Below are positions 5,580 to 19,477 of a DNA stretch of 51,313 nucleotides, in pieces; positions within the stretch are counted from its first letter, which is position 1; each line of letters opens with the position of its first letter. Made by a program: the position numbers and the translations under genes. The notes beneath the pieces were generated by a model, which searched no databases, was not told the DNA's origin, and was given only the letters and a program-made list of their open reading frames with translations. This DNA comes from Clostridia bacterium (lineage in GTDB: Bacteria; Bacillota; Clostridia; UMGS1883; UMGS1540): NCBI GenBank assembly GCA_045592225.1, contig JAZNUH010000007.1, forward strand, positions 1 through 51,313, in the 5' to 3' direction.

Positions 5580-6779
5580 ATGGAAAACATATTACAAAAG
5601 CAGTTTGAAATTATAGACGGTATTGCTCTTAAAAATCAGGAAAAGGTATTGAATGCCTTTCGTGAATTTAAGGTAAGCGAGGCGCATTTTGCACCCACAT
5701 CGGGATATGGATATGATGATTTGGGAAGAGATACTCTGGATAAGATTTACGCGTCTGTATTTGGCAGTGAAGCCGCTCTTGTAAGGCACAACTTTGTGTC
5801 GGGTACACACGCGCTTACTGTAATGCTTTTCTCGGTTTTAAGACCGGGGGATACCCTGCTTGCAGCAACAGGCAAGCCTTATGACACTCTTGAAAATGTT
5901 ATAGGCATAAACAAAAAAAGCGGAACAACCCTTGCTGATTTCGGGGTATCTTATGCACAGGCAGACCTTAAAGAGGGCAGACCTGATTATGACGAGATAA
6001 AAAAACAGCTGAACAGTAAAAATGTAAAGGCTGTGCTTATACAGAGGTCCAAAGGCTATGATTGGCGTCCATCACTTTGTATGGAGGATATGGAAAAGCT
6101 TATTTCTTTCATAAAGAGTGAGAAACCCGATACCATTGTGCTTGTTGACAACTGCTACGGAGAATTTGTAGAGGAGATAGAGCCTACTGCCGTAGGTGCT
6201 GATCTTATGGCGGGTTCACTTATAAAAAATCCGGGAGGCGGTCTGGCACAGACAGGCGGTTATATAGCGGGAAAGGAAGAATATGTGCGCCTTGCGGCAG
6301 ATTTTCTTACTGCACCGGGAATAGGTCTTGAATGTGGCGCAAATCTCGGCACAGTAAAGGCTATGTATCAGGGCTTTTTTATGGCACCCCATACTGTAGC
6401 CTGTGCAGTTAAAACAGCGGTATTCTGTGCTGCAGAGATGCAAAAGCTCGGCTATGAGGTTTCGCCTTTACCTGAAGATAAAAGGACAGACATAATTCAG
6501 GCGGTAAAGCTTGGAAATGCCGATAAGGTTATTAAATTCTGTCAGGGGATACAGGCGGCATCGCCGGTTGATTCCTTTGTAACTCCAACACCATGGGATA
6601 TGCCGGGATACACCTCGCAGGTTATTATGGCAGCAGGTACATTTACTTCAGGCGCATCAATAGAAATAAGTGCAGATGCTCCCATTCGCGAACCCTATGT
6701 AGTATATCTGCAGGGTGGACTTACTTATGAAGCAGGAAAGCTCGCGGTAATGTCTGCAATAAAAAGCATTGAAAAATAA
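5580..6779 (+). CDS. Methionine gamma-lyase family / aluminium-resistance (YnbB-like) PLP-dependent protein
   Basis: 399 aa with the conserved family N-terminus (..AFREFKVSEAHFAPTSGYGYDDLGRDTLDKIYA..) and SLIKNPGGG motif. It starts 12 nt after iorB. Confidence 0.75.
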   Translation: MENILQKQFEIIDGIALKNQEKVLNAFREFKVSEAHFAPTSGYGYDDLGRDTLDKIYASVFGSEAALVRHNFVSGTHALTVMLFSVLRPGDTLLAATGKPYDTLENVIGINKKSGTTLADFGVSYAQADLKEGRPDYDEIKKQLNSKNVKAVLIQRSKGYDWRPSLCMEDMEKLISFIKSEKPDTIVLVDNCYGEFVEEIEPTAVGADLMAGSLIKNPGGGLAQTGGYIAGKEEYVRLAADFLTAPGIGLECGANLGTVKAMYQGFFMAPHTVACAVKTAVFCAAEMQKLGYEVSPLPEDKRTDIIQAVKLGNADKVIKFCQGIQAASPVDSFVTPTPWDMPGYTSQVIMAAGTFTSGASIEISADAPIREPYVVYLQGGLTYEAGKLAVMSAIKSIEK

Positions 6780-16659: not shown

Positions 16660-18201
16660 ATGAAGAAAATTTGTATACTGATGGTTATATGCATTTCTGT
16701 AAGTATGCTTGCAGGGATGAACGTACTTGCATATAATACACATAATCTTACACGCAGAGAATGTATTTCAAGCCTGTTTTCTGACTTTGAAATTGATTAC
16801 GAAAATGCGGATATATCAGTGCTGGAAAATTTTTCGGATTACGACAGTGAAGACTGGGCAAAAGAGCAGGTTGCGGCTGCGGTAGAGTATGGTATAATCA
16901 ACGGATATGAGGACAACACACTTCGCCTTGACAATGAGGTAACAAGAGCAGAGTTTTGTTGTATGATATACAGGGCAAGAAATTACTTTGACGAAAGAGA
17001 AAAACTTACAGAATATAACGGAGCATACACTGACATTGCTGACTGGCACAGAGCAGAAACAATATATTGTGTAGAACGCGGATTTATGTTGGGTTATGGT
17101 GACAGGTTCGGCTCTGCAGACCCCATTACCAACAAGCAGGAGGATATTATTGCCGAAAGACTTAAGTATGGACTTAGTACAAGAGACAGATATATGCACC
17201 TGTTTATAAGCGGAGCGGATACAATTGATATGAATACAGTTCTTGCTTCTGCATATTATGACGAGATAAATGCCTATGTACCGGGTAACTTTGATGAAAA
17301 CTCGCCGGGAATGCAAAAAGAAAATTATATACATTCATATTACGATGCCAATCAGCACGGATTTGTGAGCGTGGACGACCCTTCTTATGTAAAAGGTCAA
17401 GCGGCGCAGATGTTTTATAAAAAGCTTGATTTAATCGGTAATATGGATGTAAATAAGCTTGCTGATGAAGAATATAAGCAGATGGTTACTGATAACTTCT
17501 ATTCGTCAGGCTTTCAGGGAACCCCTCTTGCATGGGATATTAATACAGAAGGGAACAAAACCAACATTGACAATATAATAGCCGATGCAAAGCAAAACGG
17601 AACGGTACGAGAAAGTATACATGTTTTTGCACCCGAGAATACTTACTGTACAGTATTTCCGACTGCATTCAGTCAGGATTATACCTGTGGATATGAGTAC
17701 TTCAGATACACGGCGGGACAAAATTTACCTGAAGGCATAGAGGTTAACAAATGGTACAGACGAAAGGCAACGGCAACGCACATTGAGCAGGTTGTAAGGG
17801 CTTATTACTATCCTCTTGAGCTTATATGTGTATACGGCGAGCCGGAGCAGGTATTCGTAAACGAAGATATACTCAAATTAACTGACAGCAAAGGTGAAAC
17901 AATCATCACAAACAACAGTATCGTTTCGGCTGAATATTTAAAGGATGAAAACAGACAAGAGTGGGTTGTTATGTTGACACTTACTGATCAAGGCAGGGAA
18001 AAGTTCAGCCGGGCAACAAAGGGGATTTCAGCTTATGCTGATGGTGAAAATTATATTGCTATTTATTTAAAAGATGTGCTTATTTCTGCTCCGCGTGTAA
18101 GTGATGAGATTGTAACAAGTACAGTACTTATAACAGGTGATTTTACCGAAGAATCTGCAAAAAGCTTTGTGGATGAACTGAATAAAGCGATAAAACAATA
18201 A
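16660..18201 (+). CDS. Secreted SLH-repeat protein with a SecD/SecF P1-head-like C-terminal domain
   Basis: Signal peptide MKKICILMVICISVSMLAGMNVLA and two SLH-like repeats (FSDYDSEDWAKEQVAAAVEYGIINGY.., YTDIADWHRAETIYCVERGFMLGY..). The C-terminus VMLTLTDQGREKFSRATK..YIAIYLKDVLISAPRVSDEI..ITGDFTEESAKSFVDELN matches the SecD P1-head pattern. Confidence 0.7.
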   Translation: MKKICILMVICISVSMLAGMNVLAYNTHNLTRRECISSLFSDFEIDYENADISVLENFSDYDSEDWAKEQVAAAVEYGIINGYEDNTLRLDNEVTRAEFCCMIYRARNYFDEREKLTEYNGAYTDIADWHRAETIYCVERGFMLGYGDRFGSADPITNKQEDIIAERLKYGLSTRDRYMHLFISGADTIDMNTVLASAYYDEINAYVPGNFDENSPGMQKENYIHSYYDANQHGFVSVDDPSYVKGQAAQMFYKKLDLIGNMDVNKLADEEYKQMVTDNFYSSGFQGTPLAWDINTEGNKTNIDNIIADAKQNGTVRESIHVFAPENTYCTVFPTAFSQDYTCGYEYFRYTAGQNLPEGIEVNKWYRRKATATHIEQVVRAYYYPLELICVYGEPEQVFVNEDILKLTDSKGETIITNNSIVSAEYLKDENRQEWVVMLTLTDQGREKFSRATKGISAYADGENYIAIYLKDVLISAPRVSDEIVTSTVLITGDFTEESAKSFVDELNKAIKQ

Positions 18202-18233
18202 ATATCCCCCCGTTATACGGGGGGATATTTATT
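18202..18233 (+). terminator. Strong bidirectional intrinsic terminator
   Basis: ATATCCCCCCG-TTATA-CGGGGGGATAT 11-bp stem, flanked by A-rich sequence on the left and T-rich sequence on the right. Confidence 0.8.
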
Positions 18234-18261
18234 GTTGGCTTTCGGCTACAAAATAGATGCA

Positions 18262-18443
18262 AGGGGTTTTAGTGAAATATCAACTTCGTTGATGTGAAAT
18301 AATTTACTTCGTAAATTGTGAAATATAAAGCTTCGTTTTCTGTGAAATGAAATAAATCCACATTCGCGTAGCGAATATTTCATACACCGAAAATGTATTT
18401 CACGTGCGAAGCACATTTCACAAATCCGCAAGGATTTATTTCG
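18262..18443. repeat. Symmetric GTGAAAT / short-hairpin repeat array (4 direct and 3 inverted copies around a central palindrome)
   Basis: GTGAAAT occurs at 18272, 18294, 18318 and 18342. ATTTCA(C/T) occurs at 18376, 18397 and 18415. Hairpins lie at 18279-18293, 18301-18317, 18327-18339, 18362-18376, 18382-18398, 18404-18414 and 18422-18437. See findings. Confidence 0.8.
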
Positions 18444-18445
18444 TT

Positions 18446-18485
18446 GAAAAAGCGACAGAAATCTGTTGATCGCTGTCGCTTTTTC
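18446..18485 (-). terminator. Intrinsic terminator downstream of tRNA-Arg (bidirectional geometry)
   Basis: AGCGACAG (18451-18458) pairs with CTGTCGCT (18473-18480), flanked by an A-run on the left and a T-run on the right. Confidence 0.65.
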
Positions 18486-18562
18486 TGGCGTCCCTGACAG
18501 GAATCGAACCTGTGGCGTTCCGCTTAGGAGGCGGACCCTCTATCCTACTGAGGTACAGAGAC
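18486..18562 (-). tRNA. tRNA-Arg (anticodon CCU)
   Basis: The reverse complement is GTCTCTGTACCTCAGTAGGATAGAGGGTCCGCCTCCTAAGCGGAACGCCACAGGTTCGATTCCTGTCAGGGACGCCA. It forms a full cloverleaf with anticodon loop CTCCTAA and encoded CCA. Confidence 0.9.
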
Positions 18563-18591: not shown

Positions 18592-19221
18592 TTATTTTCC
18601 GTATCTTCCGAGAAGTTCTTCGTAAATATCTTCAAGGCACATTCCCTGATTTACCAGCATAACAATGATGTGGTAGAAAAGGTCGGCAACTTCATACTGA
18701 ACCTCGTCCTTGGAATTGTTTTTAGCTGCAATAATAACCTCGGCGTTTTCTTCGCCCACCTTTTTGAGTATTTTGTCAATACCCTTGTCAAAGAGGTAGT
18801 TTGTATAACTGCCTTCTTTGGGATTGTTTTTACGGTCTGTAACTGTTTCGAATACTGCATTTAAAATTGATGCGTTAGGCTTTAAAGGTGCTTCAACAAT
18901 TTTGCCGTCTTCAATCTTGCGATAGAAGCAGCTTCTGTTACCTGTATGACATGCAGGACCTTCGGGGAGAGCAATTACCTGCAGGCTGTCAGCGTCACAG
19001 TCAACGCGGATTTCACACAGGTTTAAAAAATTGCCCGATGTTTCGCCCTTTGTCCACAGAGCCTGTCTGCTGCGGCTCCAGAATGTAACCTTTCCTGTTT
19101 CGATAGTCTTTTCCAAAGACTCTTTATTCATGTATGCCTGCATTAAAACTTCACCGGTTCTTTTATCGGTAACTATTGCAGGAATAAGACCGTTTTGGTC
19201 AAATTTAAGTTCATTATACAT
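18592..19221 (-). CDS. hisI: Bifunctional phosphoribosyl-AMP cyclohydrolase / phosphoribosyl-ATP pyrophosphatase
   Basis: The N-terminal HisI part is ..[57 protein letters not shown]. The C-terminal HisE part is ..[37 protein letters not shown]. Confidence 0.9.
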
Positions 19222-19313
19222 TATGTATTTCTCCTTTCGGATTGTTTTTGCTATTTATGTAGTATACCACAAAAAGAGGGTAGATGCAATATAAAAATAA
19301 GAGTTTTTTGATA

Positions 19314-19343
19314 AAACAAAAATCCCATCAAAAGATAGGATTT
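19314..19343 (-). terminator. Terminator-like hairpin downstream of tRNA-Thr
   Basis: AATCCCATC / GATAGGATT stem (one mismatch) with a T-rich tail on the minus strand. Confidence 0.5.
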
Positions 19344-19348
19344 TTATA

Positions 19349-19424
19349 TGGAGCTGTCTAGCAGATTCGAACTGCCGACCTCTTCCTTACCAAGGAAGTG
19401 CTCTGCCTGCTGAGCTAAGACAGC
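19349..19424 (-). tRNA. tRNA-Thr (anticodon GGU)
   Basis: The reverse complement is GCTGTCTTAGCTCAGCAGGCAGAGCACTTCCTTGGTAAGGAAGAGGTCGGCAGTTCGAATCTGCTAGACAGCTCCA. It folds as a cloverleaf with anticodon loop TTGGTAA and encoded CCA. Confidence 0.9.
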
Positions 19425-19448
19425 AAAGTGCCTGCGCGACACCTAAAT

Positions 19449-19477
19449 ATTATACTTGTAACCATTGGTTTTGTCAA
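19449..19477 (-). promoter_or_regulatory. Consensus sigma-A promoter for tRNA-Thr
   Basis: On the minus strand: TTGACA (19477-19472), 17-nt spacer, TATAAT (19454-19449). Confidence 0.65.

Follow-up and report, generated by a model that had tools for sequence, protein, structure and literature searches.

A hairpin array beside a tRNA-Arg gene of a Clostridia bacterium as a copy of Gut-1, one arm of a composite inverted-repeat element associated with PF05635 genes

What occupies the short intergenic region between two terminators next to a tRNA-Arg gene in a Clostridia bacterium, where the heptamer GTGAAAT recurs on both strands and each spacer can fold back on itself? The region (positions 18262-18443) belongs to a 51-kb stretch of DNA from contig JAZNUH010000007.1, the whole of which is called the window below. 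Our analysis identified it as a Gut-1 element (Rfam family RF01706), and this identification is well supported; it is a solo copy, the gene for a PF05635 protein found next to some other copies not being adjacent here. For the family as a whole, Gut-1 was shown to be one arm, arm A, of a composite inverted hairpin-array repeat of ~230 bp.

Identity of the array

In a cmscan search against Rfam, where the gathering cut-off of RF01706 is 50 bits, positions 18372-18446 of the minus strand matched the "Gut-1 RNA" model over its full length with 72.8 bits (E 5.6e-14). A second match on the plus strand (18270-18353; 46.7 bits, E 2.3e-7) was below the cut-off. The strand of the Rfam match, the minus strand in the window, is taken here as the element strand. 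The RF01706 consensus runs UGAAAU, hairpin, GUGAAAU, hairpin, GUGAAAU, hairpin, UGAAAU, which is the grammar that an earlier note, made from the window sequence alone, had described for this region. Arm A of the window copy aligns to the model with three hairpins and (G)UGAAAU linkers, and compensatory stem changes were found across the family. The earlier note had proposed an Rfam search as the test of novelty, and with a clean match to RF01706 the window feature is a further member of a known family and is not novel in kind. The seemingly orphan array should be annotated as a Gut-1 family element. The 61-aa open reading frame (ORF) at 18246..18431, which exists as a mechanical ORF only, should not be called a gene; we treat it as spurious because it runs through the repeat, whose conservation is that of a nucleic-acid structure.

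Gut-1 was originally described as a 77-nt motif from 43 human-gut metagenome sequences and was judged to be a probable non-coding RNA, not cis-regulatory, with no function assigned (Weinberg et al. 2010, PMC2864571). Rfam lists it under the type Gene; sRNA (small RNA). No work on Gut-1 later than the 2010 paper was found in the literature searched. The composite architecture, the placement at tRNA and rRNA genes and the link to PF05635, all described below, appear neither in the text of PMC2864571 nor in the Rfam description, and the reinterpretation of Gut-1 at the family level is, as far as we have found, undescribed.

The heptamer shows no excess in the window overall (15 copies of GTGAAAT vs 11.4 expected), and six exact copies fall within the 182 bp, vs 0.04 expected (Poisson P ~6e-12). 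Four of them are on the plus strand, at 18272, 18294, 18318 and 18342, and two on the minus strand, at 18397-18403 and 18415-18421; degenerate heptamers stand at 18377-18383 (ATTTCAT) and 18438-18443 (ATTTCG). Every spacer between the heptamers of 18262-18443 is a short palindrome. The heptamer cluster that the earlier note reported is thus real and its hairpins are all present where it placed them, the single correction being that its degenerate ATTTCA(C/T) copy starts at 18377 and not at 18376. A chance cluster of palindromes, which the note had weighed as a possible refutation, is rejected on the Poisson value and on the shuffle controls of the hairpins. The flanks that it named, two terminator hairpins and tRNA-Arg, were likewise recovered, and a promoter scan of the window element agreed with it in finding no promoter-like site. 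The parts of the window copy, in the order of the element strand, are the following.

18486..18562, minus strand: tRNA-Arg(CCT), called by ARAGORN and matching the Rfam tRNA model at 64 bits; its 3' CCA end abuts the element (...GCCA/GAAAAAGC...).
18446..18485, minus strand: HP0, a long hairpin that has both A and T tracts, similar to a bidirectional terminator, directly 5' of the element; detected by the inverted-repeat search as repeat I3, with arms 18446-18463 and 18468-18485.
18372..18446, minus strand: arm A, the Rfam Gut-1 match (cmscan, RF01706).
18438-18443, in arm A: hept0, CGAAAT.
18422-18437, in arm A: hairpin HP1.
18415-18421, in arm A: heptamer.
18404-18414, in arm A: hairpin HP2.
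18397-18403, in arm A: heptamer.
18384-18396, in arm A: hairpin HP3.
18377-18383, in arm A: heptamer ATGAAAT, followed by the start of HP4.
18362..18376, minus strand: HP4, ATTCGC-GTA-GCGAAT, the final hairpin of arm A, with a homologous hairpin (helix 4) in 37/37 aligned elements.
18349..18361, minus strand: centre, GAAATAAATCCAC on the plus strand and GTGGATTTATTTC on the element strand, complementary to the 5' end of the element.
18432-18442 paired with 18349-18359: the long-range helix P1 (hept0 and segment X with the centre), detected as inverted repeat I4.
18346-18359 and 18432-18445: the arms of inverted repeat I4, 93% complementary.
18270..18353, plus strand: arm B, a second Gut-1-like array, inverted and weaker in its match; its hairpins lie at 18279-18293, 18301-18317 and 18325-18341.
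18272, 18294, 18318 and 18342, plus strand: the GTGAAAT heptamers of arm B; on the element strand they read ATTTCAC, with hairpins of C-GAA-G loop type after them.
18301..18348: strain-specific block of 48 bp, exactly two heptamer-plus-hairpin units (alignment A1 with L320 and L321; L numbers designate loci).
18194..18236: bidirectional terminator of the convergent gene at 16660-18201, which encodes a protein with SLH and SecDF_P1_head domains (Pfam); a perfect 20-nt inverted repeat (I2), also called by the terminator scan, which forms the limit of the element next to arm B and lies outside the repeat.

Beyond tRNA-Arg(CCT), the interval 18592-19477 (minus strand) holds a hisIE gene, with PRA-CH and PRA-PH domains, between tRNA-Thr(GGT) and tRNA-Arg(CCT), and a perfect TTGACA-17-TATAAT promoter is located at 19477-19449, upstream of tRNA-Thr(GGT).

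Composite architecture and base pairing

The family was sampled by a pattern scan of GTDB genomes, which returned at least 119 loci, and by a search with the signature of the element centre, which recovered 47 full elements; 37 non-redundant elements, the window copy included, formed the set for hairpin and covariation analysis. True elements came almost exclusively from metagenome-assembled genomes (MAGs) of uncultured Clostridia of the animal gut (ruminant, human and other hosts), belonging to the families Oscillospiraceae, Acutalibacteraceae, Ruminococcaceae and Christensenellaceae. Gut-1 is no longer limited to the human gut, since MAGs from ruminants, from horse and from other gut sources carry it. 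Of the genome loci listed, 43/119 have two arrays in convergent orientation, and an Rfam scan of 17 further loci gave Gut-1 matches as convergent pairs on opposite strands in at least 14. Even the flanks given in the original Stockholm file of Weinberg et al. contain an inverted array downstream of Gut-1 and, in one case, a tRNA upstream of it.

On the strand of the Rfam match the anatomy of the element is constant: HP0, arm A, centre, inverted arm B. HP0 is, throughout the family, a long GC-rich hairpin, often with terminator-like A and T tracts. It is followed by CA, then by hept0 (cGAAAT or GTTATAT) and by HP1, which is formed by X and X'. In arm A, hairpins of 4-5 bp alternate with (G)TGAWAT heptamers, of which there are three or four; HP2, HP3 and HP4 come after HP1. 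The centre, made of X' and hept0', repeats the 5' end of the element in reverse complement. Arm B usually has four ATWTCAC heptamers alternating with the hairpins HP5, HP6 and HP7, of 6-7 bp, and ends in T(A)AAA; it is the heptamer-plus-hairpin unit of arm A in the opposite orientation. The two element ends form an imperfect terminal inverted repeat, TTTT(T)CAGTKATAT ... ATATCACTAAAA. The symmetry that the earlier note saw in the window array does not extend to the arms themselves, which are not equivalent, their stems measuring 4-5 bp in arm A vs 6-7 bp in arm B across the family, and the element is polar. The palindrome at 18362-18376, which the note called the central palindrome, belongs to arm A as HP4.

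The heptamers occur in two main flavours, GTGAAAT and GTGATAT, and in a rarer one, ATGAAAT; a single flavour runs through the whole element in 33/37 cases. The spacing of the heptamers ranges from 18 to 25 bp and varies with the length of the hairpins. In four GTGATAT-flavour elements (L031, L037, L056, L068) the second hairpin of arm B reads TTTCAC-GAA-GTGAAA, which is the heptamer of the other flavour arranged as an inverted repeat. A TATAAT sequence in the centre of GTGATAT-flavour elements was examined as an internal promoter and rejected, as it has no matching -35 box and no counterpart in the GTGAAAT flavour.

The spacers are far more self-complementary than their base composition would give: in the 37 elements the mean perfect Watson-Crick stem is 4.85 bp vs 1.92 bp in shuffled spacers, and stems of at least 4 bp are formed by 74% of spacers vs 6% after shuffling. 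For the covariation analysis the 37 elements were aligned with MAFFT (alignment A2), and RNAalifold gave a consensus structure of 34 pairs. Compensatory changes on both sides were seen in 29/34 pairs; 92.8% of cells in paired columns were paired vs 62.8% in column-shuffled alignments, a value reached by 0/500 shuffles, and slid controls gave 35-44%. The covariation score was 0.73 vs 0.21 for shuffled columns. The best-supported helix is P1, between hept0 plus X at the 5' end and the centre (98.5% paired, 7/9 pairs compensatory); P1 and HP1 are mutually exclusive. These values bear out the earlier note's view of a conserved single-stranded linker beside stems that change in sequence and stay paired, and the secondary structure of the element is under selection. 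A 'ladder' fold, which RNAfold proposed for the window copy and in which the heptamers of arm A pair with those of arm B, was rejected as a conserved structure, since the number of units differs between the arms and degenerate heptamers in arm A are not compensated in arm B.

When read outward from the centre, ~150 loops include 51 GNA, 23 GNRA and 20 other GNNA loops, almost always with C:G closure, and C:G-closed triloops are the commonest type (79/~150). Such triloops typify stable DNA mini-hairpins and are uncommon in RNA, d(GCGAAGC) being the classic stable DNA mini-hairpin; HP2 of the window copy contains the heptamer GCGAAGC exactly. An anchor-based parse of the hairpins yielded 855 Watson-Crick, 14 G:T and 9 A:C pairs, with little asymmetry between the strands.

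Genomic placement and the PF05635 gene

The association with tRNA genes that the earlier note had proposed to examine was found in 17/47 elements, in which ARAGORN placed the end of a tRNA 6-59 nt upstream of arm A. All of these tRNAs (17/17) are co-oriented with the element, they represent 13 different anticodons, and none is located on the arm-B side. In one locus (L089, 2046-2853) the element terminates an rRNA operon of the order 23S, tRNA, tRNA, 5S, tRNA, Gut-1. Other elements follow the ends of other genes, again in fixed orientation.

Several comparisons document gain, loss and replacement of units or of whole elements. First, copies within one genome are near-identical over HP0 and both arms and then diverge, ordinary genes lying between them; HP0 is copied along with the element in other genomes also, and it has no T tract in non-tRNA contexts. 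Second, the window species was recovered from two other metagenomes (L320, L321), with a locus identical to that of the window except that arm B is without the 48 bp of 18301-18348. A two-unit difference in arm B recurs, as a second independent case, between L379/L380 and L374-L378. Third, at an orthologous site with tRNA-Gln upstream and a common downstream flank, two loci have an element of GTGATAT flavour (L046, L115) and one an element of GTGAAAT flavour (L062); therefore the whole element was replaced or converted there. A metagenome scan with HisIE returned only relatives with 50-59% identity, none of which carries the element, and it yielded no empty orthologous site.

Three ideas about the spread of the element were examined and rejected. 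True elements made up only 3-4/120 of the pattern matches on viral contigs vs 43/119 of the genome loci listed, which does not suit a phage-borne element. An integron-like insertion of cassettes is contradicted by the presence of ordinary genes, and no integrase, between direct copies (L047, L113, L094). A 'CCAG' retained at elements away from tRNA genes was considered as a tRNA end carried by the element, and is largely explained by separate serine-recombinase elements that inserted between the tRNA CCA and HP0, leaving such remnants. Mobile elements with large serine recombinases lie between the CCA end of tRNA-Pro and HP0 in five loci (L322, L334, L342, L345, L346), and further ones at the 3' end of a MazG-like gene (L352-L361); these insertions mark the locus as a hot spot of integration. 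In addition, L329 differs from L340/L341 at about position 2270 in the loop of a second hairpin of the HP0 kind (HP0'), which is inverted (CTACCGG vs CCGGTAG) above an unchanged stem; the spacer between the inverted repeats has been flipped, a DNA-level event.

A gene of about 115 codons, on the strand of the element, starts 10-170 nt beyond arm B in 10 loci (L018, L021, L039, L057, L058, L080, L086, L088, L105, L004). Its product belongs to PF05635 (Pfam name 23S_rRNA_IVP, 'four helix bundle protein'), a family homologous to Avd, the accessory protein of diversity-generating retroelements (DGRs) (PMC10053308). In loci that have the gene it is placed directly after arm B (10/10). The association was also tested from the protein side, with two PF05635 subfamilies of more than 7,000 clusters each and the genomic contexts of eight representative proteins. 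A full element was found upstream of the PF05635 gene in 64/64 places with enough upstream DNA (L322-L385), which amount to only ~6 distinct loci (after tRNA-Pro, tRNA-Arg, another tRNA, rplL and a surface-protein gene). In gene-linked copies the last heptamer of arm B usually abuts the -35 box of a promoter, e.g. ATATCAC-TTGAAA-N17-TATAAT. The PF05635 subtype tracks the heptamer flavour (6/6 loci with one subtype, 3/3 with the other), a match that could reflect co-evolution or shared ancestry.

An identical module of 1,020 bp (L323, 1228-2247), made of HP0, the element, the promoter, the PF05635 gene and a MazG-like gene of 110 codons, follows tRNA-Pro in one context and tRNA-Arg(ACG) in another (L323 vs L329, L340, L341). 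Its left edge is exactly CCA/GAAAAG, and the second site has, beyond the module, a resident HP0' and element' that are different, element' being of ATGAAAT flavour. An Akkermansia MAG of the Verrucomicrobia (L004, ~5740-6170) contains a GC-rich array with ATATAAC heptamers and GCA- or GGCA-loop hairpins ~170 nt upstream of its PF05635 gene, so that the association of such arrays with PF05635 may extend beyond Clostridia.

Readings of the element and comparison with known systems

In the reading we favour, to which we give about an even chance of being correct, the element would act as folded DNA bound by a trans-acting protein. Each unit would be a short palindrome able to extrude as a hairpin, its loop being C-GNA-G or C-GNNA-G, beside a 7-nt recognition word, and the protein would read the oriented arrays of units on both arms; the strongest candidate for this protein, judged by association only, is that of PF05635. 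The nucleoprotein complex would regulate the promoter next to the element, cause the element to be copied or converted, or do both. Copies without the gene, that of the window included, would serve as non-autonomous sites of binding or recombination and would compare with derivatives of repetitive extragenic palindromes and bacterial interspersed mosaic elements (REP/BIME) or of miniature inverted-repeat transposable elements (MITEs).

Folded DNA is preferred because the identical oriented unit (heptamer, stem, C:G-closed G..A loop) is found on opposite strands of the two arms, because the stems are almost purely Watson-Crick with little strand asymmetry in the anchor-based parse, and because the element starts right after terminators on both sides and no promoter was found. 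Gene-linked elements lie upstream of the -35 box and therefore outside the corresponding mRNA, which we also count in favour of DNA. By analogy, the hairpin or cruciform at DGR targets offers a suggestive precedent for a hairpin at the DNA level. A bolder version, tentative and in our judgement doubtful, would make Gut-1 a cis-acting DNA module and not an sRNA gene: the elements would belong to a hitherto unrecognised family of small cassettes homing to the 3' ends of stable-RNA genes, with a gene for an Avd-like PF05635 protein that recognises arrays of heptamers and GNA-loop hairpins as folded DNA, similar to the requirement of the DGR machinery for a cruciform with a GRNA loop; solo arrays would be MITE-like derivatives.

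A number of observations weigh against folded DNA. As to the protein, its binding to the array is something that we purely infer; the 51-kb window yielded no PF05635 gene, adjacent or other, ~80% of elements stand without one beside them, and the loci behind the protein-side test are few. As to the nucleic acid, the element keeps a strict orientation to upstream transcription, all 17 upstream tRNAs being co-oriented on the arm-A side; its left boundary coincides exactly with the CCA end of the tRNA (CCA/G); some HP0 hairpins have a weak T tract or none; and P1, which covaries, closes arm A as if it were an RNA domain. In L105, L021 and L086 arm B must be transcribed, as part of the PF05635 mRNA leader, because there is no room for a promoter before the start codon. 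Finally, a hand tally of the MAFFT alignment A2, whose cells are phylogenetically non-independent, gave ~37 G:U vs ~16 A:C pairs on the element strand, an excess that suggests some strand-specific selection; the wobble counts of this tally and of the anchor-based parse differ.

These observations on the nucleic acid, one element closing an rRNA operon, the Rfam classification and the covariation are also what speaks for an RNA, the main rival reading, which we take as a real possibility while leaning against it. The element strand would be the 3' trailer of the tRNA-Arg operon, reached by read-through of HP0 and freed by tRNA 3' processing; the RNA would fold into P1 or HP1 and seven hairpins between GUGAAAU and AUUUCAC linkers, and it would bind or titrate a protein, possibly that of PF05635, or stabilise or insulate neighbouring transcripts. 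A same-strand terminator often follows arm B, and the loops of arm B read GNRA or GNA on the element strand, as would suit such an RNA. The multi-hairpin sRNA that the earlier note had listed among its explanations thus stays in play, being Rfam's own label as well, although the element begins right after terminator hairpins with no promoter found, its motif sits in linkers and not in loops, and the unit occurs in both orientations. Viewed as a single strand, the element would consist of two unrelated-looking motifs, GUGAAAU with UUC-type triloops and AUUUCAC with GAA-type loops, and their exact mirror relation would be left without explanation. RNA also sits poorly with C:G-closed triloops as the commonest loop, with the great scarcity of wobble pairs in the strict count, with the degenerate arm-A heptamers that arm B does not compensate, so that pairing between the arms is not conserved, and with a PF05635 promoter located downstream of the element in most gene-linked copies.

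We consider it unlikely that the element is an array of duplex-DNA sites, operator- or centromere-like, for a helix-turn-helix protein of the ParB/VirB type, with palindromic spacers that are incidental or serve as sites of a second factor. GTGAAAT and ATGAAAT do fit the consensus of P1 ParB Box A and VirB, (A/G)(A/T)G(G)AAAT (PMC6410309), but the GTGATAT flavour lies outside it. The abutting of the -35 box of the PF05635 promoter, the use of one flavour across the heptamers of an element and the frequent occurrence of TTTCAC-GAA-GTGAAA as an inverted repeat in GTGATAT-flavour spacers would all agree with duplex sites. Yet a spacing of 18-25 bp puts the sites on different faces of the helix, and the spacers are strongly selected for self-complementarity despite their sequence change, which duplex binding does not need.

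A cargo-less miniature transposon, with multi-site ends of the Tn7/Mu kind, as the earlier note had suggested, or with Y1 hairpin ends of the IS200/IS605 type, is very improbable: the imperfect terminal inverted repeat, the near-identical copies within genomes and the identical module at two loci would suit it, but no target-site duplication was apparent at copy boundaries inspected by eye with no systematic search, no transposase or integrase was seen among the few annotated genes beside duplicated copies, the serine recombinases nearby belong to separate mobile elements at the tRNA end, the spacing of 18-25 bp does not match Tn7/Mu ends, the stems are not conserved, unlike those of IS200/IS605 ends or REPs, and the viral pattern matches contain only the 3-4 true elements noted above.

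Since its description in 2010 Gut-1 has been an orphan motif, and we know of no function of PF05635 proteins outside DGRs. That Gut-1 is half of an inverted array, tied to the ends of tRNA and rRNA genes, found upstream of two abundant PF05635 subfamilies and contained in a 1-kb module whose parts move together, turns both into testable questions: does the four-helix-bundle protein bind the arrays, does it bind them as DNA or as RNA, and does binding drive promoter control or mobility? If the cassette reading were true, the array would be the first nucleic-acid partner outside DGRs for a large orphan family, PF05635 or 23S rRNA intervening-sequence proteins.

Several known systems resemble the element in part. 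Gut-1 as published (RF01706; PMC2864571) has in common with the elements described here the grammar CAaUGAAAU-hairpin-GUGAAAU-hairpin-GUGAAAU-hairpin-UGAAAU and the hosts, uncultured gut bacteria; it was presented as a free-standing 77-nt sRNA gene, whereas here it is one arm of the ~230-bp composite, to which the inverted second arm, the long-range helix, the upstream hairpin and the linkages to tRNA genes or rRNA operons and to PF05635 are additions. Intervening sequences of 23S rRNA with PF05635 ORFs (PMC10053308) likewise combine a PF05635 gene next to stable-RNA genes with flanking hairpin-forming sequence; however, the gene linked to Gut-1 is located downstream of tRNA genes or rRNA operons and not inside 23S rRNA, and its hairpin array is modular.

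DGR targets contain a DNA hairpin or cruciform whose stem is free in sequence as long as it pairs and whose loop is GRNA (PMC3240598). The free stem and the G..A loop recur in Gut-1, with C-GNA-G or C-GNNA-G loops outward from the centre, and the DGR system includes Avd, the homologue of PF05635 (PMC10053308). A DGR has a single GC-rich hairpin of 7-10 bp by the variable repeat, together with a reverse transcriptase and a template repeat, in contrast to the seven short hairpins and heptamer linkers of Gut-1, and the relation is proposed as an analogy, not as membership. P1 ParB Box A and the VirB site of Shigella (PMC6410309) have the word (A/G)(A/T)GAAAT, the same as GTGAAAT and ATGAAAT, in direct and inverted arrangements; they lie on plasmids and are bound as duplex by a helix-turn-helix protein, whereas Gut-1 keeps palindromic spacers and includes GTGATAT, outside the consensus.

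A sponge of the Csr/Rsm type is not what the element resembles, as its conserved word is in the linkers, its loops are of the UUC/GAA type and no promoter was found. With MITEs it has terminal inverted repeats in common, imperfect ones in this case. REP/BIME units begin with a 5' GTAG tetranucleotide, have a palindrome whose sequence is conserved within the genome and are recognised by a Y1 transposase (REP-associated tyrosine transposase, RAYT). The earlier note's comparison with these repeats, known from Enterobacteria and Pseudomonas, comes closest in spirit: in both cases inverted extragenic palindromes follow the 3' ends of transcription units or lie between convergent genes, and they are multi-copy, homogenised within a genome and variable in the number of units. 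The comparison does not hold for the sequence itself, as Gut-1 elements are without GTAG, their conserved part is the 7-nt linker GTGAWAT, and their stems differ between units and copies; unlike REP/BIME, the Gut-1 element is fixed in its polarity and built around a unique centre.

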